IMG/VR virus record: IMGVR_UViG_643348547_000009
Length of the DNA stretch: 15,806 bases
Reading direction: 5' to 3' (one strand)
Origin: a virus
Taxonomy: Duplodnaviria > Heunggongvirae > Uroviricota > Caudoviricetes
Positions 1 to 15,806 of this stretch are shown here, in pieces. The notes beneath the pieces are model-generated. The model was not told the DNA's origin and did no database searches. It saw only the letters and a program-made list of their open reading frames with translations. The translations under genes and the position numbers were made by a program. Each line of letters starts with the position of its first letter. Position 1 is the first letter of the stretch.

Positions 1-1461
1 ATGAAAAAATTACTGCGTCTTTTTTTCCCGCTCTCGCTGCGGGTACGTTTTCTGTTGGCAACGGCAGCGGTAGTACTGGTGCTTTCGCTTGCCTACGGAA
101 TGGTCGCGCTGATCGGTTATAGCGTCAGTTTCGATAAAACTACGTTTCGGCTGTTACGTGGCGAGAGCAATCTGTTCTATACCCTTGCGAAGTGGGAAAA
201 CAATAAGTTGCATGTCGAGTTACCCGAAAATATCGACAAGCAAAGCCCCACCATGACGCTAATTTATGATGAGAACGGGCAGCTTTTATGGGCGCAACGT
301 GACGTGCCCTGGCTGATGAAGATGATCCAGCCTGACTGGCTGAAATCGAATGGTTTTCATGAAATTGAAGCGGATGTTAACGATACCAGCCTCTTGCTGA
401 GTGGAGATCATTCGATACAGCAACAGTTGCAGGAAGTGCGGGAAGATGATGACGACGCGGAGATGACCCACTCGGTAGCGGTAAACGTCTACCCGGCAAC
501 ATCGCGGATGCCAAAGTTAACCATTGTGGTGGTGGATACCATTCCGGTGGAGCTAAAAAGTTCCTATATGGTCTGGAGCTGGTTTATCTATGTGCTCTCA
601 GCCAATCTGCTGTTAGTGATCCCGCTGCTGTGGGTCGCCGCCTGGTGGAGTTTACGCCCCATCGAAGCCCTGGCAAAAGAAGTCCGCGAACTGGAAGAAC
701 ATAACCGCGAATTGCTCAATCCTGCCACAACGCGAGAACTGACCAGTCTGGTACGAAACCTGAACCGACTGTTAAAAAGTGAACGCGAACGTTACGACAA
801 ATATCGTACGACGCTCACCGACCTGACCCATAGTCTGAAAACGCCACTGGCGGTGCTGCAAAGTACGCTGCGTTCTCTGCGTAGTGAGAAGATGAGCGTC
901 AGTGATGCTGAGCCGGTAATGCTGGAGCAAATCAGCCGCATTTCACAGCAAATTGGCTACTACCTGCATCGTGCCAGTATGCGCGGCGGGACATTGCTTA
1001 GCCGCGAGCTGCATCCGGTCGCCCCACTGTTGGACAATCTCACCTCGGCGCTGAACAAAGTGTATCAACGCAAAGGGGTCAATATCTCTCTCGATATTTC
1101 GCCAGAGATCAGCTTTGTTGGTGAGCAGAACGATTTTGTCGAGGTGATGGGCAATGTGCTGGATAATGCCTGTAAATATTGCCTCGAGTTTGTCGAAATT
1201 TCTGCAAGGCAAACCGACGAGCATCTCTATATTGTGGTCGAGGATGATGGCCCCGGTATTCCATTAAGCAAGCGAGAGGTCATTTTCGACCGTGGTCAAC
1301 GGGTTGATACTTTACGCCCTGGGCAAGGTGTGGGGCTGGCGGTAGCCCGCGAAATCACCGAGCAATATGAGGGTAAAATCGTCGCCGGAGAGAGCATGCT
1401 GGGCGGTGCGCGGATGGAGGTGATTTTTGGTCGCCAGCATTCTGCGCCGAAAGATGAATAA
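1..1461 (+). CDS. phoQ: Sensor histidine kinase PhoQ of the PhoP/PhoQ two-component system, complete 486 aa
   Basis: ATG at 1, TAA at 1459-1461. Two hydrophobic TM segments flank a periplasmic domain with the acidic cluster EDDDDAEM; H-box [11 protein letters not shown]; ATP-binding G-boxes DDGPGI and GQGVGLAV. Sequence matches E. coli PhoQ as I remember it. Confidence 0.97.
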
Positions 1462-2287: not shown

Positions 2288-3949
2288 TTACACCCCGCTA
2301 AATTCTTCCAGTTTCTGGCGGTGGCTGTCGCTTATATCAAAAGCAAAATCCTCATGCTCTGCCTGAAATGTACCAAACGCCATCAGTGCCGCTACGCTCG
2401 GGTCTATCTTGTTCGGTGATTTTTTCTTGTTCGGCTTGATATTGGCGTTCGCGTCACTCTGCATCACGACGTTACTCATCGACCAGGACAACACCGGATC
2501 GCCACGATGCACAATCACCCTGCGGTTAACAAAAACTTCGAACGATTTCGCCGCCGGACTGAATCTGAGGTAGGTTTGCGGGAACGGCTCCACCTCAAAG
2601 CCTGCCCCCTGTAATTGCGTTCTCAGGTGCGTGGCGTTCCACGTATCGAAGCCCACCAACCTGATATTAAATTTCTCGGCGTCCTGCATGATGTCATCTC
2701 TGATCCGGTCGTAATCAATGCAGTCGCCAGGCGTTGTGCATATCCAGCCCGCTTTAGCCCACTGGCGATAGACAGCGCGATTTTTATTGGCTGGGTTCTG
2801 TAGCTGGAACTCCGGCAGATAATGACGGGAAACCAGCATGATATTTTTACCGACCGGAAAGGCATAGCATACGCTGGAAATATCGCTGGTTGATGATAAG
2901 TCCAGCCCCGCGTAACACTCCTGACCGTGTAAATCTTCCTCCGTGAACGTTCCGGTACACTCAGCCCATGCACCATTACCCATCCACGGGGTAGTCCCCT
3001 GACACCAGATATTAAATCGCTTTGTCATCATCTCCACCCACTGCGACGGAATACCCCGCGCTTTCTGGATGGTTGAGGCCAGTTTTTCACGATCGACGGA
3101 AACATCGATGTTAGGGTTAGCCTTTATCCACATCGCCGGATCATCAACCTCGTTTTCGTCGTCCAGTTCGTAAATCAGTACAAAAATTGAATCGTTGACC
3201 TCTTCGCCGTCCAGGATCTGGCAGCAATAATCATAGTGCTGCTTACAGGCTGAAACGACGTTACTGCCCGATGTGGTAATGGCAAATAACAGCCCTTCGG
3301 GACGTGCGCCCATCCCCAGCTCAAGCGCGGAATAAACGCCGTTATCGGGGTGTAGGTGGTATTCGTCCACGATAGAAAGACTGGGGTTTGTCCCCTCGAT
3401 GGTTGCTGCTTTTGCTGCCAGCGGCTTTAACAGGCTGTTGCTTTTCGGGTGTATCACCTTATGCGCCTGAATATTCACCCGCCTGCGTAACGGTCGGGAT
3501 AAAAGGCACATCTGACGCGCATCATCAAAGACGATCCGCGCCTGGTCACGGCTCACCGCTGCGGTGTAGATATCCTGCTGACCGTTCTCCATAATCAGAA
3601 ACCAGTTAGCCAGAATCGCGGCGGTCGTGGATTTCGCATTTTTGCGCGGCACTTCGATAAAGGCGCTCGTGTATTTGCGCCGTCCGGTGGCCTTAACCTT
3701 AAAGCCGAGGATGCACGCAAAGGCGAACTGCTGCCACGGCTCCAGCTCAATGGGTCTGCCACGCATCGGTCCTTTTACGTGCGGGCACACCCTGGAAAAG
3801 GCAATAAACCGCTCCACAACCTCACGATCGAACGTGTAAAGGGGGCTTTTAAGGTCCGAAAAGTACCGTTTAACAGCCTGTTTTAACCGTTTACAGGCCG
3901 GAATTTTGCCCGTTTTTACGTCTTCTGCGTACTTATTCCAGGCGGTCAA
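2288..3949 (-). CDS. Phage terminase large subunit (553 aa)
   Basis: Walker-A-like PRKNAKST in the N-terminal ATPase region and an acidic nuclease-type C-terminal half; follows TerS directly. Start is TTG at 3949 with a GAGGA Shine-Dalgarno 5 nt upstream and overlaps the TerS 3' end by 17 nt; there is no in-frame ATG nearby. Confidence 0.88.
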   Translation of the reverse strand: MTAWNKYAEDVKTGKIPACKRLKQAVKRYFSDLKSPLYTFDREVVERFIAFSRVCPHVKGPMRGRPIELEPWQQFAFACILGFKVKATGRRKYTSAFIEVPRKNAKSTTAAILANWFLIMENGQQDIYTAAVSRDQARIVFDDARQMCLLSRPLRRRVNIQAHKVIHPKSNSLLKPLAAKAATIEGTNPSLSIVDEYHLHPDNGVYSALELGMGARPEGLLFAITTSGSNVVSACKQHYDYCCQILDGEEVNDSIFVLIYELDDENEVDDPAMWIKANPNIDVSVDREKLASTIQKARGIPSQWVEMMTKRFNIWCQGTTPWMGNGAWAECTGTFTEEDLHGQECYAGLDLSSTSDISSVCYAFPVGKNIMLVSRHYLPEFQLQNPANKNRAVYRQWAKAGWICTTPGDCIDYDRIRDDIMQDAEKFNIRLVGFDTWNATHLRTQLQGAGFEVEPFPQTYLRFSPAAKSFEVFVNRRVIVHRGDPVLSWSMSNVVMQSDANANIKPNKKKSPNKIDPSVAALMAFGTFQAEHEDFAFDISDSHRQKLEEFSGV

Positions 3950-4289
3950 GCTCGTCCTCTTCTTCTGTTTCCGGTGGATTTTTACGGCGGCTTATCGGGT
4001 CAAAACCGAGCAAGGAGGCCATTTTTATCATCACTCTTTCAGCGTCGGATTTTGCGCTTAATGCGGGGTTTCTGCTCTCGCCGCCCTGACTGTTAACAAT
4101 GCTGAACCCGCGCGCCGCAAGGTCTGCAACGGCTTTCCGGTAAATGGAGTAGTTGACGCAATACAGTTCCAGATTGCTCCAGTCGGCGGGGGTCAGGTCT
4201 CCCCGTTCCGCAAGCTGCCGCGATTTTTCCCGCCACTGCTTCACGGCGATATCATCCAGGTAGGCGGGGGCTTTCGGTGGTCTTGCCAT
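3933..4289 (-). CDS. Phage terminase small subunit, P27-like (118 aa)
   Basis: Small protein immediately upstream of and overlapping TerL, with an acidic C-terminal tail (ETEEEDELDRLE). The sequence resembles P27-family TerS as I remember it. Confidence 0.75.
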   Translation of the reverse strand: MARPPKAPAYLDDIAVKQWREKSRQLAERGDLTPADWSNLELYCVNYSIYRKAVADLAARGFSIVNSQGGESRNPALSAKSDAERVMIKMASLLGFDPISRRKNPPETEEEDELDRLE

Positions 4290-4340
4290 GCTTATTTTTC
4301 GTCAGATTATTTTTCAAAAAATTCCCGTGCATAAAAATTT

Positions 4341-4400
4341 GGGGAGGCGGTCGGTGCCCGGCGGGGTCGGGTTTGTCCTGAAAACGCCCCCCACCCCGTC
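4341..4400. other. Candidate cos / packaging recognition site in the HNH-TerS intergenic region
   Basis: GC-rich tract ggggaggcggtcggtgcccggcggggtcgggtttgtcctgaaaacgccccccaccccgtc, with a G-rich left end and a C-rich right end in inverted symmetry, lying between HNH and TerS where HNH-dependent cos sites usually sit. The first 10 nt (GGGGAGGCGG) resemble the start of the P2-type cohesive end GGCGAGGCGG, which I recall from memory. Confidence 0.35.
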
Positions 4401-4577
4401 ATACAGCCTCATCAGCGATTGCGGAAACATTCCATAACCTCGCGGTCACGGTCGGTTAATCGCTTCGCTGTGATGCGTTCTGCGCGTCCTGACGCTTTAT
4501 CTTTATGCCCTGTTTCCTGTGTCTTCCATGCGTCACGCTGCCTTATAAGTCCACGGATAAGGCGGTTTTGTTCCCGC

Positions 4578-5018
4578 TCATTCATCAGCGTCATACATCC
4601 AGTTATTGCGGTTAGCGGCCCGTTCTTCCTCTTCACGAAATCCACCTGCGGCACGCTTGCTTTTTGTTGCCGGATCAAGCCATTTCGTTTTCTGGTTATG
4701 GCACGCCTGACACAATGGTTGATGGTTCCATTCGGGCCAGAAGAGAACATCATCACCGCCATCGATGGGGATAATGTGATCCACCACCACGGCGGGCGTA
4801 TATATCCCCTTCTCAAGGCATCGCACGCATAACGGGTTTTTACTCAGATACATGGCGCGGTATTTGTCCCACTGTCTGGAGTACCCACGCGCGCGGCGGT
4901 GTCCTCGTCTGGCATCCTCTGCACGCCATGCCGCCCGCCTGTGCTCCTCACACTTGCCGGACTTCACGCGCCTGTTACAGCCTGGTTCTGTGCATCGTCT
5001 TAATGGTTGCCACGGCAT
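4578..5018 (-). CDS. HNH endonuclease, phage packaging-associated (146 aa)
   Basis: HNH-type motifs CVRCLEKG, VDHIIPIDGG and CQACHNQK; sits directly upstream of TerS as in HK97-like HNH/terminase systems. ATG at 5018 overlaps the stop of the upstream gene (ATGA). Confidence 0.85.
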   Translation of the reverse strand: MPWQPLRRCTEPGCNRRVKSGKCEEHRRAAWRAEDARRGHRRARGYSRQWDKYRAMYLSKNPLCVRCLEKGIYTPAVVVDHIIPIDGGDDVLFWPEWNHQPLCQACHNQKTKWLDPATKSKRAAGGFREEEERAANRNNWMYDADE

Positions 5019-5314
5019 CAGTACACCCCCACATCACGATAAACCGACCAGAGCATCCCTACAGCCAGCGGGATTTCTTTTGTGTCTCCATCCCCGACCG
5101 TGGCCCTGTATTCGTACAGTTGCGACACGTACATCATGCAGCCAATCTTTATGGCTGGCGTGAACTCCAGCCCGTCATCAAAGCGCCTGCCGATGTGTTT
5201 CTGGCACACCTCAAGCGCGGCGGCGATGTATCCGCTGATTAACTGGTCTTCCTCATTGCCATCAATGCGGCAATGGAGTTTCACTTCTTCCAGGGTGATT
5301 AATTCTGCTGTCAT
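5018..5314 (-). CDS. Head-tail connector protein, gp6-like (98 aa)
   Basis: N-terminal LEEVKLHCRIDGNEEDQLISGYIAAA pattern typical of gp6-like connector proteins; start and stop overlap neighbours by ATGA. Confidence 0.7.
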   Translation of the reverse strand: MTAELITLEEVKLHCRIDGNEEDQLISGYIAAALEVCQKHIGRRFDDGLEFTPAIKIGCMMYVSQLYEYRATVGDGDTKEIPLAVGMLWSVYRDVGVY

Positions 5315-5649
5315 CGTGGCGCACCTGTTTTACAAAGAATTTCCAGACGAGTCCTTTTACCGTCGGGAACGGGGGGGCCAACAATATCAAGCTCATTGCC
5401 GGAATAAGCCCCCGTGAGTACCCGTATCCGGCTGGATGCCGTAACATCCACACGAAAACGGATCCAGACTCTTACGGTTGCCTGTGCCGTTTCTGCACCT
5501 GCGGTCATGCGTTCCCGTCCGCTGATCCCTTTCACCTCCGCCCATACGGTGGCAACATCCTCCCATGTGCTTTTCATTGCACCGGAAGGGAGGCGGGAAA
5601 GTTTCGCGCTCATGATGACAATGCGATCCCTCATGCTCCCCGCTCTCAT
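5311..5649 (-). CDS. Phage head closure / head-tail joining protein (112 aa)
   Basis: Size, position between portal and connector, and resemblance to the head closure protein family; ATGA overlap with the portal stop. Confidence 0.68.
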   Translation of the reverse strand: MRAGSMRDRIVIMSAKLSRLPSGAMKSTWEDVATVWAEVKGISGRERMTAGAETAQATVRVWIRFRVDVTASSRIRVLTGAYSGNELDIVGPPVPDGKRTRLEILCKTGAPR

Positions 5650-6860
5650 GATTTGCCCTCTTTATCATCCTTTACTTCGATCTCCTGTTTCCAGGCCTGG
5701 CTGAACTCATCGCCACCATCACGCGGCGATAATCCCTCACGTTCGCGGGCTTCGTTCGGGCACATAACGCCGGACTTGATGCCGCGTTCATAGGTGGCAA
5801 AGCGTTCGCCAGGTGTGGCCCGTAACAGATCCGCGCTGTCAAACTCCACCTGATACCGGATACCAGGTACAGGCGAGGCCACCAGCAAAGCATTTTTTAT
5901 CTGCTGCTCAAAGTTCGCCAGCCACGGGCGCATCGTCATGGTGAGAAATGCGCGGCTTGCCTCGCTGAAATTGCTGTAGGTGCTGTTGCTGTATTCCTGC
6001 AGAAAAATCGGCGAGACGTTGAACATTCGGGCGATGTCTTCAATGGTGAAGCGACGGGAGGCCAGCCATTCAGCATCCTGGTTACTCATGCCAAGCTGCT
6101 GATAGCTCATACCCCCTTCAAGAATGGGCGTTTTTCCGGCGTTTCTGGCTCCTTTGTAGCGTTCCAGTGCGGCTAATGCCTGTTTGCCCTTCACGCCGTC
6201 CAGCCATTCGCCTGACGTGATAACCCCTGCTGCCATCATGCCATCACGCATCACGCTCGCGCCGTGGCGCTGTTGGGCCAGCCCAAGCCCCAGCGATTCG
6301 CGGCAGATGGTCACAGGTGAGCGCCCCATAAAGCCGTCATCCGTGGAGTAACGAAGGTGGAGAACCTCCCACGGTAAATAGTTGCGGGTGTTTCCGCTGT
6401 AAGCGTCAGTGATGCGGTAACGCCAGTTATGTTCCCCTGTCTGCTCAACATTCACCGACTGCGGCGGGTAAGGGTGCAAAGCCACTGGAAAACCATCACG
6501 CCCCCACTGAATCACCGCATAAGCATTACCGTTTAACAGGCAGTGGCGGACCATCATTCGCTTAAACTGATAGGGCGTCTGCCACGCGTTCGGGCGCTCG
6601 TTGAGGATATGATCGACCGGATGAGAATCAAGCCACTCGCGGGCCTCCTTCCCCTTCTCATTGCGTACCAGGTACAGGTAGCATGGCATAGTAGCCACCG
6701 CCTCAGAGATGACCGTGACGGCGTTCATGACGGCGGGGAGTGATTCCGCTGTCCCCGATGATACGTACTCACCCGCCCCCGTGTTCGATGTGCCAGCCAG
6801 CGCCATAAATTCATCCAGCGTCATGCTGCGATGCTCTTGTTTTCGTCTGAAAGGCCACAT
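5646..6860 (-). CDS. Phage portal protein, HK97 family (404 aa)
   Basis: About 400 aa protein adjacent to the prohead protease with an acidic C-terminal tail; GGGGG Shine-Dalgarno about 6 nt upstream of the ATG at 6860. Confidence 0.88.
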   Translation of the reverse strand: MWPFRRKQEHRSMTLDEFMALAGTSNTGAGEYVSSGTAESLPAVMNAVTVISEAVATMPCYLYLVRNEKGKEAREWLDSHPVDHILNERPNAWQTPYQFKRMMVRHCLLNGNAYAVIQWGRDGFPVALHPYPPQSVNVEQTGEHNWRYRITDAYSGNTRNYLPWEVLHLRYSTDDGFMGRSPVTICRESLGLGLAQQRHGASVMRDGMMAAGVITSGEWLDGVKGKQALAALERYKGARNAGKTPILEGGMSYQQLGMSNQDAEWLASRRFTIEDIARMFNVSPIFLQEYSNSTYSNFSEASRAFLTMTMRPWLANFEQQIKNALLVASPVPGIRYQVEFDSADLLRATPGERFATYERGIKSGVMCPNEAREREGLSPRDGGDEFSQAWKQEIEVKDDKEGKS

Positions 6861-6861
6861 A

Positions 6862-7437
6862 TCACACCCCCGCTAAATCCGCCCACCAGCGGCGATTATC
6901 CGCGCGTGGCATTTTTTCGGGGTGCTGCTCATACAGGGAACGGCGGGCCAGATCCACGCCGGAATCAGGGTAAGCCGGTACGGATGTAACGGTAATTTCG
7001 TACAGTTCCGCCACCAGCACGGTGCGCACGCATGGATCTGTTGTGGTATCCCATACATCCTTACGGGAACGAAAGCCAAAGCTCATCCCCGAGATATCAC
7101 CACGCTTAACCAGTTCGATAACGTCCCGCCCTGTACTGGTATCCGGTGGGGTCAGTTCAAAGCGTAACCCTGTTTCATCCTCTTCCAGTTTCAGCGTACC
7201 GGAACGGGTACGCCCCAGTAACATGCTGTGGTCGTGCTCATACAGGCCGCGAACGTCATTACCCGCCGCCAGCCACTCACTGAACGCCCCCCGCTGGAAT
7301 TTTTCGTAAAACTCACCCCATAGCAGATCAGAAAGGTTATTCCAGCGAACAACGTAACCCGTCAGCGTACTGGCTCCGCTGGTGGTGATTTCTGATGACC
7401 GGATTTCCATGCTCTTTTTCATATTTTTTTCACCCAT
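6862..7437 (-). CDS. HK97-family prohead protease (191 aa; start may instead be the ATG at 7422)
   Basis: Conserved protease-family segments LYEHDHS, GRTRSGTL and GMSFGF. The ATG at 7437 has no good Shine-Dalgarno; the in-frame ATG at 7422 has GGTGA about 9 nt upstream. Confidence 0.85.
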   Translation of the reverse strand: MGEKNMKKSMEIRSSEITTSGASTLTGYVVRWNNLSDLLWGEFYEKFQRGAFSEWLAAGNDVRGLYEHDHSMLLGRTRSGTLKLEEDETGLRFELTPPDTSTGRDVIELVKRGDISGMSFGFRSRKDVWDTTTDPCVRTVLVAELYEITVTSVPAYPDSGVDLARRSLYEQHPEKMPRADNRRWWADLAGV

Positions 7438-7445
7438 AAAACACC

Positions 7446-7468
7446 AAAGGGGCTTTTTAGCCCCTTTT
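7446..7468 (-). terminator. Stem-loop plus U-rich tract between the capsid and protease genes (candidate attenuator)
   Basis: Inverted repeat AAAGGGGC / GCCCCTTT (8 bp stem, 6 nt loop) 4 nt after the capsid stop; on the minus strand it is followed by GGTGTTTT and then the protease ATG. Confidence 0.4.
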
Positions 7469-7472
7469 TCTG

Positions 7473-8645
7473 TTAACCGCCGTTTTTCATCTCGAGGACT
7501 TTTATCGCGCGGGAGTCAACAACCCCGCCGCCGATGTATTTGTCCGTGTGTACCTTGTAGAAACCCGGCTCTGTAATGTTGTCCGGTCGGGTACGAATAC
7601 CCGTTTCATGGTCAACGATGAAATAACCGCGCTTAAAGTCACCGACAGCCAGCGGCGTTTTGCCTTTGCCGATGTCCGGCATACTTTCCAGGTAATAAAC
7701 AGGACGGCCCAGCAATGTGTCAGGTGCGCCCTCTTTGAGGCTGTCACGCCATACGTAATCACCGCTCTGGTTTTTCAGCTTCTGCAATGCTGCCGCTGTG
7801 CTCGAGTTCATCACCCATACGGCGTTCTTACGGTATTTCGCTTTCAGCTTGTAGAGGATGTCGATCAGTTCGTCCGCTGTAATGGCGGCTTCGGCTGCTG
7901 CTACCATTTTTTCAATGGTGCCAAAGGCGCGGGTTTTGTCGTTGGTTAGATCTCGGTTGTAACTCAGGAAACCTTTCGGCTTGCCAGTACCATTACCATT
8001 TACAAAATCATCTTCTTCGGTCGTGGCGAACGTATCGGCGATTTCAGACGATAACCAGCCCAGTACGTCCACCTCTGAAAAATCCAGAATTTCCTGTGTG
8101 GTTTTCGGGTAGGCATAGATCGGGTTAAGTTTGATGCTTACGCGCTCAACTTTCGGGGTGTTGGTTTCGTTACGCTTGCTGCCCTCGGTTCCATAATTTA
8201 CAGCCGCGCCACCTGTGGAAACCAGTTTCTGATATTCGTTTGATTTCGCCGTTTTCACGGTCGCAATCATTCGCATGACGCTTTCATCACTCAGTAACCG
8301 CATGACCTCGCGATCAAGCTCAGGGATAACGGTATAGCCACCGTCCTTGCCGCTGTTGCTAGTGGTGGATAATGAGCGAACGTCACCCGTTACGATGTAA
8401 TTGCGAAGTTCTGCGGGGTCAGTGGTCTGGCTGGCTTTACCTGGCTTGCTGCGCTCTTCGTCTGCAATGGCTTCAAGGCGGGAAATGTCTTTATCGAGGG
8501 ATTCAGCTTTAGCGCGTAATTCGTCAAATTTTGCGCCCTCAGCATCGTTAAGACTGCGGTTTTCTTTTTCCGCGTTCTCCAGCATGTCGCGCATCTGATT
8601 TTTAATGGCGGTTTTCTGCTGGCGTAATTCGATTATTCTCGGCAT
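7473..8645 (-). CDS. Major capsid protein, HK97 fold (390 aa)
   Basis: N-terminal coiled-coil scaffold-like delta domain (ELRQQKTAIKNQMRDMLENAEKE...), about 390 aa, adjacent to the prohead protease; ATG at 8645. Confidence 0.92.
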   Translation of the reverse strand: MPRIIELRQQKTAIKNQMRDMLENAEKENRSLNDAEGAKFDELRAKAESLDKDISRLEAIADEERSKPGKASQTTDPAELRNYIVTGDVRSLSTTSNSGKDGGYTVIPELDREVMRLLSDESVMRMIATVKTAKSNEYQKLVSTGGAAVNYGTEGSKRNETNTPKVERVSIKLNPIYAYPKTTQEILDFSEVDVLGWLSSEIADTFATTEEDDFVNGNGTGKPKGFLSYNRDLTNDKTRAFGTIEKMVAAAEAAITADELIDILYKLKAKYRKNAVWVMNSSTAAALQKLKNQSGDYVWRDSLKEGAPDTLLGRPVYYLESMPDIGKGKTPLAVGDFKRGYFIVDHETGIRTRPDNITEPGFYKVHTDKYIGGGVVDSRAIKVLEMKNGG

Positions 8646-8682
8646 AAAAAAAGTCCTGGGGTTAAGTAAGGAACTCCAGGAC
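8646..8682 (-). promoter_or_regulatory. Terminator-like hairpin plus T7 tract directly abutting the capsid start codon
   Basis: Minus strand reads GTCCTGG-(16 nt loop)-CCAGGAC-TTTTTTT-ATG. The only Shine-Dalgarno candidate (AGGA) is inside the 3' arm of the stem. Confidence 0.4.
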
Positions 8683-8859
8683 GCGGCAAAAACTCAACCG
8701 TTTTTCATAAGGAAATCAGCAATCGCACCGATCGTTTTCCCGCCTGGTAATGAATATTGGCGAGAACATTAACAGGCGGAAAAGTGGCCCCAGCGTCCTG
8801 GCACCACGGGCGAGAATAATCATGATTCAGTTCGGGTAAAATATGCCGATCCGGTCAGC

Positions 8860-8885
8860 GAACAACGTGGAACAACCACGAACAA
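8860..8885. repeat. Three GAACAA direct repeats at exact 10 bp spacing in the packaging-operon upstream region
   Basis: Read directly: cGAACAAcgtgGAACAAccacGAACAAataa; shares a 15-mer with 1586-1600. Confidence 0.6.
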
Positions 8886-8904
8886 ATAATTTACAAAACA
8901 TGAC

Positions 8905-8925
8905 AAAAAGCCGGATTGCTCCGGC
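8905..8925 (-). terminator. Candidate rho-independent terminator after the perC-like gene
   Basis: On the minus strand, GCCGGA-gcaa-TCCGGC (6 bp stem, tetraloop) followed by TTTTTGTCATGTTTTG, starting 7 nt after the perC-like stop. Confidence 0.5.
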
Positions 8926-8932
8926 TGTGTGA

Positions 8933-9205
8933 TTATCTGTCCTGGTAATTTCGCCATATTTCATCACCAGCACCATCCATACCCATTTCGGCATAAGTGC
9001 GATCGACCGCCTTTTTCAGGTCTCCGTAATTATCCGGCGGCTCCGGTGGCCTCTGTGCCTTCCTGGAACATTCCAGCCGTCGCATCGTGATGTGATGCCG
9101 TTCCTTGTCTGTCTCCACCAGTTGCATGACTTCACCCCATCGCGCCGACGCTCTCCGGTAAAAGCCTTTCGCCTCCAGTTCTTCCGCTATGCGGTCATGT
9201 ACCAT
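8933..9205 (-). CDS. PerC-family transcriptional regulator-like protein (90 aa)
   Basis: N-terminal pattern MVHDRIAEELEAKGFYRRASARW matches my recollection of PerC-family proteins; strong Shine-Dalgarno (GAGGGGGG); last gene before the head module. Confidence 0.55.
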   Translation of the reverse strand: MVHDRIAEELEAKGFYRRASARWGEVMQLVETDKERHHITMRRLECSRKAQRPPEPPDNYGDLKKAVDRTYAEMGMDGAGDEIWRNYQDR

Positions 9206-9214
9206 CGCCCCCCC

Positions 9215-9625
9215 TCAGAACGGAATATCATCACCGTAAGGGTCATCGCCTCCCGCTGGTGGCTGATTACCCTGTGTGCCTGTGGTCTTGCGTCGGCTCC
9301 CACCAGGTCGCGCCGTTCTGGCACTGATTACGCTGTCTGCAATAACCTGCCAGCCCTGCCGCGTTTCGCCGTTCTGGCCTGTCCACTGGCTTACCTGCAT
9401 GTTACCCGCCACGCTCACCAGCTCGCCTTTGTGGTGTTTTGCCAGTGCGTCGGCCTGTCTGCCAAACGCCAGGACGGATAACCACATCGTCGCCTGTCCG
9501 TCATCTGCCTGATTGCACGGCAGGGGGACCGCCATGCTTGCCATAGCCATTTGTGTGCCCTTGCTGGTGGTCTTTAACTGCGGGTCAGCCACCAGCCGCC
9601 CGTAAGCGGCTATCTGTGCTGTCAT
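9215..9625 (-). CDS. ssb: Single-stranded DNA-binding protein (136 aa)
   Basis: OB-fold-like N-terminal region alignable with E. coli SSB, a Gly/Pro/Gln-rich linker, and the acidic C-terminal tip DDIPF. Confidence 0.8.
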   Translation of the reverse strand: MTAQIAAYGRLVADPQLKTTSKGTQMAMASMAVPLPCNQADDGQATMWLSVLAFGRQADALAKHHKGELVSVAGNMQVSQWTGQNGETRQGWQVIADSVISARTARPGGSRRKTTGTQGNQPPAGGDDPYGDDIPF

Positions 9626-9879: not shown

Positions 9880-9928
9880 TTTTATTTTTACCCCCTCGTT
9901 TAAAAAGTTTTGAGTTGTGCCTCCCCTT

Positions 9929-10154
9929 GTCTACCTTATCTACCTTACTGGCTCTCATGCCAGTAATGGCGCGGCTTTCAGCGGGGTAGAGTGCTTTTAT
10001 CCACTATCTACCCCGTATCTACCTCCCTGTCTGATTCAGGTAAAATCAGGTAGAGAGGGTAGATAGTAGGTAGACAGTGAAAAAAGGCTGTCTACCTAAG
10101 TTAATATACTGAATTAAATGTATTTTTCTTTACTCAGGTAGACAGGGTAGACAG
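9929..10154. repeat. Candidate replication origin: about 11 iterons with core GGTAGA / TCTACC in both orientations, plus an AT-rich stretch
   Basis: TCTACC at 9931, 9940, 10007, 10018 and 10091; GGTAGA at 9985, 10049, 10058, 10069, 10138 and 10147. AT-rich segment at about 10100-10130. Located immediately 3' of the primase gene. Confidence 0.65.
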
Positions 10155-10167
10155 CCATTGCAAAAAA

Positions 10168-11916
10168 TTATAAAAACGCGTCGCAATCGTCTGTTGTTAT
10201 TGCGTTAGTCTGCGTTACTCCCTTAACTTTCCGCGTAATATATTCATGTCCGTAAACTTTCGCGGCTGGCTTCATAGCCTTGCCAAAGTCATTTACGTTT
10301 AGCGGTTTGCTCCTGCCTGCGTATGCCATAAACGCCAGATAGACGCGGTAAAGGCTGTTTCTGGTCGTGTACTTCACTGAATCGCCACCGCCACCCATCA
10401 TCAGGCCGCGCGCTTCCTCCAGAAAATTCAGGAACTGGCAAAACTCAATAACCGGATCCGTCTGTTGCTTTATTGCCAGTGCTTCATCACCGTCACGCTG
10501 TTCCAGTAGTAAAGCCCGTGCCTTCTCAGGGTCGGTAAAGTTCGCCAGCAAGCGGCGGATAATGACAGGGATTTCAGCCGCGATCTTTTCCGGTAGCTCC
10601 CTGTCTTTTTCTGCCTCGCTTACGATATTGTCGAAGCGGAAAATAACCCGACGACGTGACACGCCTCCGGCCCGTTCGGTGAATATCATCGGGTTGTTAT
10701 TGGTCGCCAGCACCACCGCCCTGATTACCGTAGTGAAACGCTTTTCATATTTCGGGTTGATTTCCACGGGGTCGCCGCCCGTGATTTTCTTGATGCCCGT
10801 GCCTTCGCCTGTATATTTCGGCTGGTCTGCCAGGACGATAAGACGACTCCCGACAACCTGCGCACGCCCACCAGCATCATCAAGCGATGTCATTTCCGCG
10901 CTTACCGTGTTTTGTTTCCCCGCTAAAAGGCTGGCGATGTGGGTGAATGTACTTTTGCCGCTCCCGCCGTCTCCGGTGGCCTCAATAAACATCTGCCAGT
11001 CGTACCGGTTCGCCATAATCATGTACAGCGCGGCACATATACGCATCATCTTGCGCGAGTCTTTTCCGGCTGCGTGCTCAAGCCATTTATGAAAGTTTGG
11101 CGCGTTATCGCGGATGTTCTCCCCTGGTGCTGGTGGCGTGTACTCAATGCCGTTGTTCGTGGTGATCCAGTTCTCCGGCGTGTGCGGGGAAAATTCCCCC
11201 GTTTTCAGGTCAAGCGCACCATTGGCGAACGGCAGCAAATCGCCGGACGGCTCGCCCATTGGTTCGGCAATAACTTTTAACGCTTCCACGGCGTTATTGA
11301 TTACGCGCTTGCTGAAAGTGGCCCTGTGCTCTGAATAGATCGCCACCATTTCGCGGCTAAGTTCCATTGTGCTGACCGGACACCATACCCCGCCGCGCCA
11401 TACGTGAACGATTTCACTTTCCGGATGCACACAAACGCCATCAAATCGACCAGCAAGCATCTGTGCGCGCTCACTGTCTGCCATTTGTGCCAGTTGCGTA
11501 TTTTTCTGCTCCGGCATGGTAAGCCCTGCGGCAATATTTTCACGCTCAGCATTCAGATAGCGCCGCCAGTTTTCACACTTCTGGACGTGCATTCCTTCGG
11601 GGTAAAAATTTGCGTCCTGAATATCTGCCGCCGCCAGCTTCTGACCAATCTTTTTGGTCTCCACCAAATCCAGTTCTCCGGCCTGGTACAGCCTTACGCG
11701 TTTTTTTCCATCCGGAACAATTTTCAGTGCATCAAGTTCGGCAAGCTGATTTGGCCCAAGCCACACAGGCGGCACATTATCGCCGGATGCGGGGCCATCC
11801 TGCTCCTGCCATTGTTTCGCGTGCGACCAGGCATCACTACCCGCGAAAATAATTACCTCTGTGTCTTTGTGTTTTATTCCGCGTGGCTGTTTTTTTACGT
11901 TCGGTGCCAGTTTCAT
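10168..11916 (-). CDS. Phage/plasmid primase-helicase, P4 family (582 aa)
   Basis: Walker A motif GDGGSGKST in the C-terminal NTPase domain and a primase-like N-terminal half; ATG at 11916 with an AGGGG Shine-Dalgarno; followed by the iteron region. Confidence 0.88.
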   Translation of the reverse strand: MKLAPNVKKQPRGIKHKDTEVIIFAGSDAWSHAKQWQEQDGPASGDNVPPVWLGPNQLAELDALKIVPDGKKRVRLYQAGELDLVETKKIGQKLAAADIQDANFYPEGMHVQKCENWRRYLNAERENIAAGLTMPEQKNTQLAQMADSERAQMLAGRFDGVCVHPESEIVHVWRGGVWCPVSTMELSREMVAIYSEHRATFSKRVINNAVEALKVIAEPMGEPSGDLLPFANGALDLKTGEFSPHTPENWITTNNGIEYTPPAPGENIRDNAPNFHKWLEHAAGKDSRKMMRICAALYMIMANRYDWQMFIEATGDGGSGKSTFTHIASLLAGKQNTVSAEMTSLDDAGGRAQVVGSRLIVLADQPKYTGEGTGIKKITGGDPVEINPKYEKRFTTVIRAVVLATNNNPMIFTERAGGVSRRRVIFRFDNIVSEAEKDRELPEKIAAEIPVIIRRLLANFTDPEKARALLLEQRDGDEALAIKQQTDPVIEFCQFLNFLEEARGLMMGGGGDSVKYTTRNSLYRVYLAFMAYAGRSKPLNVNDFGKAMKPAAKVYGHEYITRKVKGVTQTNAITTDDCDAFL

Positions 11917-12212
11917 TTTTTACCCCTGAATACGTTAAGCATCTTTTTTATTTCCTGAATATTGGCGCGTGCTTTCTCCCTGCTGGTGGGCACGTTACGC
12001 GGTACGGCCTGCACCAGAGAAAAATCACGATCGAACTGATAAACAGGCATCACGCAATCATATTCGTAGCCTTCACGACGGTAGGTTACGCGCCGTTCCT
12101 CCACGCCCTTAATCATTACCATGCCGCCATATTTATCGCGGTAAATATCGCCGTTCATAAATTCAGGACGAGCGGGGCCGCTGGCAGTAACGCCAGAATT
12201 TTTATTTTTCAT
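11913..12212 (-). CDS. Small hypothetical protein (99 aa), possibly DUF4222-like (tentative)
   Basis: ATG at 12212; stop overlaps the primase start (ATGA). The RDKYGGMVMIKGVEERRVTYRREGYEYDCVMP segment resembles small proteins I recall upstream of P4-family primases. Confidence 0.5.
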   Translation of the reverse strand: MKNKNSGVTASGPARPEFMNGDIYRDKYGGMVMIKGVEERRVTYRREGYEYDCVMPVYQFDRDFSLVQAVPRNVPTSREKARANIQEIKKMLNVFRGKK

Positions 12213-12445: not shown

Positions 12446-12902
12446 GACTCCCCCCCTGGCGAATACGGGCGACAAAAATAAGATGTGCGTGCGGCAGCTG
12501 TGCACGTGCTTCGCGCTCAGTGGCAGCGGTAACGGTGAATATTGCAATACTGTCTGTCAGGCACTGCATAAAGCGCCAGACAAAATAAGGGCGTGCGAAT
12601 ACAGCCATGTGAAAGGCTCCCAGATGAATTTTAAGGAGTCTCGCTACTACGCTGCTAAACATGGTGGCGAGACGTAACAGGGTTAGCAGACTGGTCATCT
12701 GGAAACCAGCGAGCACAAAGGCTCCCCCGTTACGCCCCGCCATAATGCGGGTATGGGTAGGTTTACGGACACAAAAAAACCGCTTATCGGATGTGGGCGG
12801 CTGTCCGCCAGATGTATTCAGGCTGCTAAACCCGGTCGCCATGTGGGCGACGGGGGAAGCATACAGCCCCGTGATAATTTTTTGCAAGCGGTTTTTACGC
12901 AT
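12438..12902 (-). CDS. Icd-like (P4 cell-division-inhibitor family) domain protein, copy 1; full ORF is 154 aa, and an internal start at 12608 would give 56 aa
   Basis: C-terminal WRF...ATEREARAQ...FVARIRQGGSHA is paralogous to the C-terminus of copy 2. The ATG at 12902 has an AGGGG Shine-Dalgarno and overlaps the copy 2 stop; the ATG at 12608 has a GGGAG Shine-Dalgarno. Confidence 0.45.
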   Translation of the reverse strand: MRKNRLQKIITGLYASPVAHMATGFSSLNTSGGQPPTSDKRFFCVRKPTHTRIMAGRNGGAFVLAGFQMTSLLTLLRLATMFSSVVARLLKIHLGAFHMAVFARPYFVWRFMQCLTDSIAIFTVTAATEREARAQLPHAHLIFVARIRQGGSHA

Positions 12903-14013: not shown

Positions 14014-14202
14014 TTAATGAACTGCCTTGCAGCTATCCTTCCAGGCCAGAACCTCGGATAAAGACCAGCCAACGGAACGACCGCCAAGTTTACGACGTGA
14101 TGGGAATTGTCCGGCCTTTTCCAGGCGGTAGCGACACGTACGGCTAAGGCCGGTTAGTTTTTCGCATTCTTTTTCACGTATAAACCGATCAGTGCTTAAC
14201 AC
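14014..14202 (-). CDS. alpA: AlpA-family phage transcriptional regulator (62 aa)
   Basis: HTH segment LTGLSRTCRYRLEKAGQFPSRRKLGGRSVGWSLSEVLAW typical of the AlpA family; GTG start at 14202 with an AAGGGGG Shine-Dalgarno 5 nt upstream; immediately downstream of int. Confidence 0.8.
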   Translation of the reverse strand: MLSTDRFIREKECEKLTGLSRTCRYRLEKAGQFPSRRKLGGRSVGWSLSEVLAWKDSCKAVH

Positions 14203-14576: not shown

Positions 14577-15806
14577 TTATTTTCTTCTGGCTACTGGTAG
14601 CGTGGTTACGTTTTCATGTGTTCCCGCCAGTATCCCTAACCGCTCCGTCCACATATCCAGCGCATTGCGTTTAGCATCCAGATAACGGGAATGATTATAA
14701 ACTCGCTGCATTCCTGGCATCTGGTGGCCTGTAAGCTGCTCCACGACGTGAGGATCCACGCCTAAATCGCTCAGCATCGTTGTAAAGGTGCGCCGGATGT
14801 CATGTAGTGACCAGTGAGGGTGATTTAGCCTCCTGTGCGCTAATCTGCCGTACTGCGACACGCTTGTTTCCTGTTTCACTTCCCCCAGCAATAAGCCCGT
14901 GTGCCTGTTCTGCTCCACCAGCTGCGTGACGAACGGCAGTATTGCTTCCGGTATGGGCCGGAATATTGCCACCTTCGTTTTGCTGTGTTCTTTCGGCACG
15001 GTCCAGAGCATTTCGGTAAAATCCCACTCGCTGATCTCCGATAACCTCAGTTCTACCGTCCGGCATCCGAACACAATCAGGAGGCGGATTAACGCGATGT
15101 AGTAGGGGGAGAATATTTTTTTGTCCAGTGCCTGCAATAATTCGCCCAGTTCTTTGGTGCTTAAGACACGCTCGCTTATATCCGGTTTTTTCCCAACGTC
15201 CGCCACACTCATATCATCAAGAACGTTGCTGATTGCATAGCGCCGCCTCCGGCAGAACTTAAGCGCCTGTTTGCACGTCTGTAGCAAGAATCCGGCAGTA
15301 ACAGGCGTTCGCTTTGCCACCTGGTCAAAACAGGCCAGCCAGTGCCGTAGCTCGCATTTATCCAGCGGCATAGCACCAATGTGCTGTATTACGTGATTAT
15401 TAAGGCGCTTTTTCAGGGCGGCATAATCCACGCGGTTTTCCTTTGCGTACGACTCAAGCCAGTAGGTGAGCGCATCGCCAACCGTTACCGGCTTTAACGC
15501 TTCCTGTACGGTGTAATTAAGCTCATGACGTGGATTTTTCCCCTCTGCCAGCCATGCGCGACACTGGGCGGCTTTTTCCCTGGCTGATTTCAGGCTCAGA
15601 TCAGGATAATTTCCCAGCTTAATGCGTTCCGGTGGTGCCCCCCTTCCCGTTCCGGCCCTGTAAGTGAAATACCAGGTTAAAAGGCCACTGGTTGAATGCC
15701 TGACGCTCAGGTTTCCACCGTCATTAAGAAAGGCTGTTTTTTGGGCGGGTGTGCCGTTGATTTTCCTCAGCTGTGTATCGCTCAGTTTGTTAAGTGCTCT
15801 GCTCAT
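14577..15806 (-). CDS. int: Site-specific tyrosine integrase, P4-type (409 aa)
   Basis: ATG is formed by the last three bases of the window. N-terminal arm-binding-like domain, and a C-terminal catalytic region (...HDIRRTFTT...YNHSRYLD) consistent with the tyrosine recombinase R/H/R/Y arrangement. Confidence 0.93.
   Translation of the reverse strand: MSRALNKLSDTQLRKINGTPAQKTAFLNDGGNLSVRHSTSGLLTWYFTYRAGTGRGAPPERIKLGNYPDLSLKSAREKAAQCRAWLAEGKNPRHELNYTVQEALKPVTVGDALTYWLESYAKENRVDYAALKKRLNNHVIQHIGAMPLDKCELRHWLACFDQVAKRTPVTAGFLLQTCKQALKFCRRRRYAISNVLDDMSVADVGKKPDISERVLSTKELGELLQALDKKIFSPYYIALIRLLIVFGCRTVELRLSEISEWDFTEMLWTVPKEHSKTKVAIFRPIPEAILPFVTQLVEQNRHTGLLLGEVKQETSVSQYGRLAHRRLNHPHWSLHDIRRTFTTMLSDLGVDPHVVEQLTGHQMPGMQRVYNHSRYLDAKRNALDMWTERLGILAGTHENVTTLPVARRK

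Follow-up and report, generated by a model that had tools for sequence, protein, structure and literature searches.

The prototype of the capsid-forming PICIs (cf-PICIs) is EcCIEDL933 of Escherichia coli O157:H7 EDL933, in which each of the packaging genes downstream of the capsid gene is required for transfer of the island (bioRxiv 10.1101/2022.09.08.507074). The same paper mentions no terminator, hairpin, or promoter in the packaging module, and a literature search on EcCIEDL933 transcription and on SpLE2 returned nothing on the packaging operon; for the island family, it turned up no Term-seq, RNA-seq, or in vitro transcription data. For phages, LUZ100 is reported to have what looks like a strong terminator immediately past the MCP gene, “similar to T7” (PMC10134795), and T7 is cited in an ONT-cappable-seq preprint for inefficient terminators that balance expression (bioRxiv 10.1101/2022.03.18.484859). 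These two statements were the only ones on post-capsid terminators found in the literature. In a reporter series built on lambda tR2, termination was almost completely repressed close to the stop codon and rose to its full level only from about 30 bp onward, the terminating ribosome being what keeps the hairpin from folding (Li et al. 2015, PMC4824070). The intercistronic hairpin of the Rhodobacter puf operon, in contrast to a terminator, works by slowing mRNA decay (Chen et al. 1988 Cell 52:609, as cited in PMC9690577).

The window analyzed here (the whole stretch of DNA, 15,806 nt in length) is, by gene content and synteny, an EcCIEDL933-type cf-PICI adjoining phoQ (1-1461, plus strand). A cf-PICI is defined in the cf-PICI preprint cited above as an island of 10 to 15 kb that has an integrase, regulators, and a primase besides capsid, protease, portal, connector, HNH, TerS, and TerL genes of its own and lacks tail and lysis genes. 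Pfam searches of the window revealed an integrase, regulators, a primase, and the packaging genes of the island itself, and no tail or lysis genes; the island layout and the phoQ neighborhood are syntenic with those of the E. coli O157:H7 EDL933 island (locus L001). This gene content marks the element as a phage satellite with small capsids of its own making. Pfam assignments on the minus strand comprise the integrase (14577-15806), AlpA (14014-14202), a DUF4222 protein (11913-12212), a D5-type primase (10168-11916), SSB (9215-9625), and PerC (8933-9205). The first packaging gene, also on the minus strand, encodes the major capsid protein of the HK97 fold (7473-8645; PF05065 Phage_capsid, E 2.7e-71), whose RefSeq homologues are annotated “phage major capsid protein.” It is followed by the prohead serine protease (6862-7437; Peptidase_S78, PF04586, E 1.1e-47), and these two Pfam matches bear out the capsid and protease labels that an earlier note on this DNA had given from the sequence. 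Next on the same strand, again by Pfam, are the portal (5646-6860; Phage_portal), head closure (5311-5649), gp6-like connector (5018-5314), HNH (4578-5018), TerS (3933-4289), and TerL (2288-3949) genes. The order capsid, protease, portal is the reverse of the usual portal-protease-capsid order of phages. Junctions of the packaging genes within 2288..6860 mostly overlap or are 1 nt apart, and the capsid-protease junction is the only one in the head-gene block that does neither.

Several other features of the island were observed along the way. Another strong terminator-like hairpin, at 8909-8926 on the minus strand and 6 nt past the PerC-family gene, reads AGCCGGA-GCAA-UCCGGCU and has UUUUGU after it. 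The packaging-operon promoter must lie in the 264-nt non-coding stretch from this hairpin to the capsid ATG (8646-8908); no sigma-70-like site turned up in that stretch, nor did a scan of the minus strand from 12435 to 676 find one. The only other sizeable gap of the packaging module (4290-4411, about 120 nt), which precedes terS and follows a small ORF overlapping the HNH gene at its end, is a candidate location of the cos site. Just downstream of the D5-type primase gene, at 9925-10159, the 8-nt iteron (T)GTCTACC / TATCTACC is repeated at least 12 times, with copies pointing either way; this array is probably the replication origin of the island, and it explains a weak palindromic “mir-3927” Rfam match. 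A full-length C4 antisense RNA (RF01695, 72.7 bits) was identified at 12660-12864 (minus strand), beside an a1/b1 target (RF03163, 45.5 bits, slightly below the gathering score) and an isrK-like match, so that a P1/P7-type antisense immunity module is present within a satellite; at the position of the C4 RNA, relatives carry genes annotated as Icd-like cell-division inhibitors. The packaging module of E. coli ZH063 (L005), which is 95.6% identical to that of the window, lies between bioD and uvrB, while the window and EcCIEDL933 lie beside phoQ, indicating that one head module has been joined to integrase and attachment-site modules that differ between islands. The match of the EDL933 island to the window is split in two and makes up only 61% of the capsid-protease query, and thus the islands are mosaic.

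Intrinsic terminators are recognized by a GC-rich hairpin that lies on the coding strand just past a stop codon and has U's directly after it. In the window, the RNA hairpin AAAGGGGCU-AAAA-AGCCCCUUU occupies 7446..7467 on the minus (coding) strand, with its 5′ arm at 7467-7459, its 4-nt loop at 7458-7455, and its 3′ arm at 7454-7446. Its stem has nine contiguous pairs (5 G:C and 4 A:U), and a spacer of 5 nt, CAGAA (7468..7472), separates it from the capsid stop codon TAA (7475-7473), so that the hairpin marks the 3′ end of the capsid gene. Read along the minus strand, the order is GGC GGT TAA, CAGAA, AAAGGGGCT, AAAA, AGCCCCTTT, GGTGTTTT, ATG GGT GAA AAA AAT ATG AAA AAG. The part of the hairpin that is homologous among relatives (see below) is the core GGGGC...GCCCC. 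Directly 3′ of the stem, GGTGTTTT (7445-7438) leads to an in-frame ATG at 7437-7435; the coding-strand tract after the hairpin is GGUGUUUU, then ATG. An intrinsic terminator calls for a U-tract of about 7 to 9 nt. The window has, after its G:C core, the interrupted U-rich tract UUUGGUGUUUU (7438..7448), composed of three proximal U's, GGUG, and UUUU, with a T-run of 3 and T at 7 of 10 bases; the first three U's are able to pair with the upstream AAA. The hairpin had been recognized in the earlier note, in which the stem length (8 bp), the distance from the capsid stop (4 nt), and the extent (7446-7468) were each off by one. The additional suggestion of a processing site found no support, as nothing points to a specific nuclease site, and an RNase III site was rejected because the stem is only 9 bp long.

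The isolated hairpin has a predicted energy of -13.7 kcal/mol on the minus strand and -14.1 kcal/mol on the plus strand, which makes it a stable GC-rich stem-loop, as expected of an intrinsic terminator. Folding an 81-nt context gave -20.9 kcal/mol, which corresponds to a z of -2.45; of 200 shuffles, 4 folded as well or better. In a scan of the window for terminator-like sites, the hairpin ranked first on either strand, although the total number of such sites was no higher than expected (23 observed versus 19.5 in shuffles). When dinucleotide-shuffled windows were searched on both strands for hairpins of at least 9 pairs, at least 5 of them G:C, with a T-rich tail, comparable hairpins arose 0.41 times per shuffled window, with at least one in 26% of the shuffles, and the 15.8-kb window contains just one of such quality. 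Given this chance rate, the window alone is weak evidence for the hairpin. What lifts it beyond chance is its placement in the 35- to 50-nt gap after the capsid stop together with its conservation in relatives. When the entire window was compared with Rfam by cmscan at E up to 1, nothing matched at 7438-7475, the only matches being at 12660-12864 and 9992-10089.

Relatives were collected by a capsid-protein scan with one genome per species, which yielded 80 loci in Enterobacterales, Pasteurellaceae, and Orbaceae whose capsids are 61 to 73% identical to that of the window. With the window and five loci from E. coli included, the set contained 79 junctions in which an intact capsid gene is followed by the protease gene. 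A hairpin with a GC core is present in the capsid-protease gap of 69 of these 79 junctions, past the capsid stop and in coding orientation as in the window. It starts 2 to 15 nt (median, 4) past the capsid stop and ends 8 to 24 nt (median, 20) before the protease start of the family. A strict terminator-like test (at least 6 pairs, at least 4 of them G:C, and a tail starting with TT and holding at least 4 T in 8) was passed by 54 of the 79 junctions and by 65 of 10,786 (0.6%) other 53-nt windows on the same strand of the same loci. In six loci, namely, L019, L055, L062, L076, L081, and L084 (from Shigella flexneri, Gilliamella, and several Xenorhabdus), the capsid gene has a premature stop codon, which suggests that these islands are decaying. 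In L065 (Testudinibacter aquarius; region of about 4171-4260), the hairpin is present and the next ORF (MLTVKLYGDLKQF...) is not the protease; in this locus the hairpin stayed with the capsid gene when the neighboring gene changed. We considered a REP element, a palindrome repeated at many intergenic sites of a genome, and rejected it, as the hairpin is single copy in the 15.8-kb window and, from one genus or phage to the next, its sequence goes with the capsid gene and not with the host genome.

Forty-two distinct hairpin sequences were found, with 28 distinct loops of 3 to 8 nt, among which C(UNCG)G tetraloops are frequent. Because loop lengths differ, a MAFFT alignment of the 53 distinct junction sequences put the 5′ arms out of register, and an alignment of the subset with 4-nt loops also mis-registered the window. 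Pairing was judged instead from a table anchored on the outermost G:C pair of the core, which takes the place of a formal covariation count or RNAalifold. In the relatives, the four outer core pairs of this table are nearly always G:C in one orientation; being near-invariant, they are uninformative about pairing and covariation. Support for pairing comes from three sources: (i) inner pairs 5 and 6 vary with pairing kept, pair 5 being C:G, G:C, U:A, U:G, or G:U; (ii) the stem has been replaced, in the E. coli loci L002/L003 (islands of 76% DNA identity) by GGAGGC-UGCG-GCCUCC followed by UUUUU, in L043 by GGGAU/AUCCC, and in Proteus by a 14-bp stem; and (iii) the loops turn over.

The orientation of the signal can be read from the flanks of the core. 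Among the 53 distinct junctions, 44 have a T-run of 3 or more directly 3′ of the core (median, 3; 5 to 6 in 14 and only 1 to 2 in 9), whereas an A-run of that length 5′ of the core, which would serve as the U-tract of the opposite strand, is seen in only 5 (median, 1). A paired Wilcoxon test of the difference gave p ~ 9e-9, for sequences that are not phylogenetically independent. On this comparison, the conserved terminator-like signal is that of the coding strand. The window, with an A-run of five, is an outlier, and its five A's make the hairpin look bidirectional there. Indeed, its plus-strand form, GGGGCUUUUUAGCCCC then UUUUUCUGUU, has the better U-tract, comes first in the scan, and is the more stable at the -14.1 kcal/mol given above; within the window, therefore, the opposite strand looks as good as the coding strand or better, which counts against a terminator of the capsid transcript. 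One may ask whether the hairpin acts on the other strand or on both, as a bidirectional terminator or insulator against antisense transcription into the capsid gene. We regard this as extremely unlikely, for no plus-strand gene or convincing promoter converges on the hairpin and the long A-run is a peculiarity of the window, not of the family.

The quality of the tail varies among relatives. Textbook terminators with 5 to 6 U's occur in L044, L046, L072, and L079, while poor U-tract tails are seen in CCCCUGUCUGG (L082), CCUCUUAAAG, and CCCCUGUUCUG (L086/L087). This variation bears on a competing explanation, that the hairpin is a barrier to mRNA decay only, with no useful termination, and that the capsid segment outlives the rest of the transcript after an endonucleolytic cleavage downstream. 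The intercistronic hairpins of puf and malEFG are precedents for such barriers. Stable hairpins with almost no U-tract in L086/L087, L082, and Brucella phage BiPBO1 are consistent with it, as are the frequent, extra-stable C(UNCG)G loops and the distance of the stem from the capsid stop (2 to 15 nt; median, 4), at which ribosomes repress termination. However, an exonuclease barrier needs no T-run, and yet a run of at least 3 is kept in 44 of 53 junctions on the coding-strand side only; textbook 5- to 6-U terminators are found, besides the four loci named above, in Vibrio phage K311 and Klebsiella phage 1 LV-2017. A role in decay alone is in our judgment possible but rather unlikely.

Ten of the 79 relatives have no hairpin, and their capsid-protease gap is 1 to 18 nt long. 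They belong to a Xenorhabdus subgroup (with the junction type TGATAATATTGGAG..ATG), Photorhabdus (L080), Symbiopectobacterium, and “Candidatus Pantoea bathycoeliae.” The hairpin is thus dispensable; it tunes something and is not required.

The distance from the hairpin to the next gene depends on the protease start codon. PGAP places the start in the two closest E. coli islands, L005 and L001, at the ATG homologous to that at 7437. In more than 70 homologues from other genera, however, the protease starts with MK..(D)FEIR and has a GGAG Shine-Dalgarno sequence upstream, and the counterpart of this conserved start in the window is the second in-frame ATG (7422-7420; MKKSMEIRSSE), 7 nt downstream of a Shine-Dalgarno-like GGUGA (7434-7430). 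In E. coli L002/L003, the equivalent of the upstream ATG is out of frame and lies within the Shine-Dalgarno region ...TATGGAG.... Comparison of the sequences thus makes ATG 7422 the more likely start, rather than ATG 7437. The earlier placement of the hairpin just before a protease ATG holds for the in-frame ATG 7437, which is present, and probably not for the conserved start: the hairpin ends 8 nt before the former and 23 nt before the latter. The automatic protease start in EDL933-type islands may be 15 nt too far upstream, adding MGEKN to the protein.

Were ATG 7437 used, the GGUG that abuts the 3′ end of the stem would lie 8 nt from it, and the junction is, as noted, the only one of the head block that neither overlaps nor is 1 nt apart. 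These two facts could be taken to mean that the hairpin controls translation of the protease by shaping its ribosome-binding region or by breaking the coupling between capsid and protease. In the family, however, the stem ends a median of 20 nt before the conserved start and the GGAG lies outside it, with nothing sequestered; the same hairpin follows phage capsid genes that have an unrelated small ORF or a connector next; and the conserved T-run would be left unexplained. We find control of protease translation very unlikely.

Hairpins of this kind are not confined to islands. We sampled 12 records of ordinary phages with homologous capsids and the portal-protease-capsid order from a spread of capsid-homologue records, and in 10 of them the capsid stop is immediately followed by a GC-rich hairpin, mostly with a T-run; the two others, Streptococcus Javan100 and Monoglobales CHVD5762, have none. 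The hairpins sit in the largest gap of the head module. Examples are AAAAGGGGC-TGAT-GCCCCTTTT in Serratia Rovert, CCGGGGCC-ACA-(A)TGGCCCCG followed by TTTTT in Vibrio K311, CCACCGC-TCCG-GCGGT followed by TTTTTT in Klebsiella 1 LV-2017, AAGGGGC..GCCCCTT followed by CTTTTTTT in Burkholderia vB_E184, and ACCGCG-CCGA-CGCGGT followed by TTTTTT in E. coli vB_EcoS-569R6. There is hardly any U-tract in vB_EcoM-689R6, Salmonella 118970_sal3, and Brucella BiPBO1 (UCACC). The gene after the hairpin is an unrelated small ORF or a connector, and the presence of the same hairpin despite a differing next gene indicates that the hairpin travels with the capsid gene. Structure, position, orientation, and conservation of the hairpin, together with the same arrangement in phages, are direct observations on these sequences.

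Attempts at wider phage sampling added nothing to these 12 records. An alignment of ten capsid sequences had no block conserved enough for a search for related loci, and scans of viral contigs returned only copies 99 to 100% identical with the vB_EcoM-689R6 capsid as query and no match with the Rovert capsid. A 16.5-kb record named “Escherichia phage vB_KppS-Ant” (LR881103.1; L088) has the cf-PICI layout of primase, capsid, hairpin, protease, portal, and connectors and a capsid 71% identical to that of the window; though deposited as a phage, it probably represents a packaged satellite. No experimental characterization of the hairpins of the sampled phages was found in the literature.

The core orientation GGGG/CCCC, which is kept in 41 of 42 distinct hairpins, could also mark a sequence-specific site, either for an antiterminator or RNA-binding protein of the island or of the helper or as a DNA operator or packaging signal. 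A G-rich 5′ arm and a C-rich 3′ arm by the U-tract are, however, usual for intrinsic terminators. Neither loops nor flanks are conserved, there is no Rfam match, ten islands do without the hairpin, and unrelated phages with capsids of 22 to 35% identity have similar ones. A recognition site is accordingly given hardly any probability as the role of the hairpin. A cos or pac site was considered separately and rejected, since the loops are not conserved and the hairpin is also present in phages with different terminases. Likewise rejected was a promoter with a 5′ stabilizing hairpin for a separate protease transcript, there being no promoter-like site and the T-run not fitting such an arrangement.

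We consider it probable, by somewhat more than an even chance, that the hairpin is a leaky Rho-independent terminator that also protects the 3′ end of the capsid mRNA. RNA polymerase starting at the packaging-operon promoter upstream of the capsid gene would transcribe this gene and, at GGGGCU-AAAA-AGCCCC followed by UUUGGUGUUUU, part of the polymerases would release the transcript. The remainder would run on into the protease, portal, head closure, connector, HNH, TerS, and TerL genes. Released transcripts, and read-through transcripts after 3′ trimming, would both end in a stable stem-loop that slows 3′-to-5′ exonucleases, and capsid mRNA would thereby outnumber and outlast the mRNA of proteins that are needed in far fewer copies per particle. 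Because the capsid gene comes first, a single hairpin would give its transcript an excess over all others. Both a partial terminator and an mRNA stabilizer had been proposed in the earlier note. The former agrees with the GC core and coding-strand T-run seen at 69 of 79 island junctions and in 10 of 12 phages; the latter fits the comparative evidence as well, a stable hairpin at the 3′ end of the high-demand capsid segment being placed as stabilizing hairpins of the puf/REP type are, and the two roles are not separable in these sequences.

We infer that polymerases terminate at the hairpin, that only some of them do so, and that the stability of the mRNA and the ratios of the proteins are affected as a result. 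Termination would have to be incomplete because the downstream genes are needed for transfer and there is no room for a promoter before the protease gene, only 8 to 23 nt without a promoter-like site being left between the stem and the protease start. That the putative terminator is weak is suggested by its interrupted U-tract, by the stop codon 5 nt away, and by the essential, promoterless genes downstream. For strong terminators, a bubble-edge motif, GC(U)7RU, has been proposed in the hairpin/U-tract/bubble-edge (HUB) model (bioRxiv 10.64898/2026.05.29.728758). Aligned by eye with the U of GGUGU as -1, the window has CC at -11/-10 (-10C matches and -11G does not), 4 of the 7 U's, and a matching GU at -2/-1, a partial match that predicts weak rather than strong termination. 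With poor tails and a close stop codon, termination could even be near zero, and stabilization would then be the sole role.

The short distance to the stop codon admits a further variant, a ribosome-gated terminator. Termination would be suppressed whenever a ribosome at the end of the capsid ORF sat on the 5′ arm, and polymerases without a close ribosome would terminate, so that transcription of the protease, portal, and terminase genes would require active capsid translation and scale with it. The near-invariant orientation of the GGGG/CCCC core might in addition reflect a pause or recognition requirement. This variant is, in our estimate, quite unlikely; if true, it would provide a built-in checkpoint of assembly stoichiometry in satellites and HK97-type phages.

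If the leaky-terminator reading is right, it would explain how hundreds of capsid subunits per dozen portal subunits and a handful of terminase are obtained from one operon, and it would give a reason for the capsid-first order, as one leaky terminator parts the high-copy protein from all low-copy ones. For the annotation of cf-PICIs, the hairpin marks a probable transcript boundary, and engineers who turn cf-PICI packaging modules into delivery vehicles would do well to keep or tune it. The finding opens no new question in phage biology, and its practical uses are modest.

The hairpin is undescribed for the cf-PICI family but is of a well-known kind. It resembles T-phi of T7 (after gene 10) and the LUZ100 terminator in being a stem-loop terminator, here a putative one, just downstream of the major capsid gene in a late structural block, where incomplete termination lets, or in the window would let, the downstream structural genes be expressed. 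T7 and LUZ100 differ in having single-subunit phage RNA polymerases and a capsid gene with its own promoter, whereas the window is a satellite element, presumably transcribed by the host polymerase, in which the capsid gene is the first packaging gene. With the puf hairpin it shares the placement of a stable stem-loop between cistrons, of which the upstream, high-demand segment is, or in the window would be, the more abundant; the puf hairpin differs in acting through mRNA decay with no requirement for a U-tract, and it has an unrelated sequence and a different biological setting. Lambda tR2 is likewise an intrinsic terminator a few nucleotides past an ORF, as is the putative one in the window at 5 nt after the stop, but the tR2 constructs are a synthetic reporter series and not a natural element of a capsid operon. 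A further likeness is with the HK97-type phages (Rovert, K311, 1 LV-2017, and vB_EcoM-689R6, with P27-family or HK97-like head modules), which have homologous capsids (22 to 37% identity) and, right after the capsid stop, a GC-rich hairpin that is often GGGGC...GCCCC with a T-run. In these phages the order is portal, protease, capsid, hairpin, and connector, so that the hairpin parts the head-shell genes from the neck and tail genes and has portal and protease upstream, whereas in cf-PICIs the protease, portal, and terminase genes all lie downstream of it.
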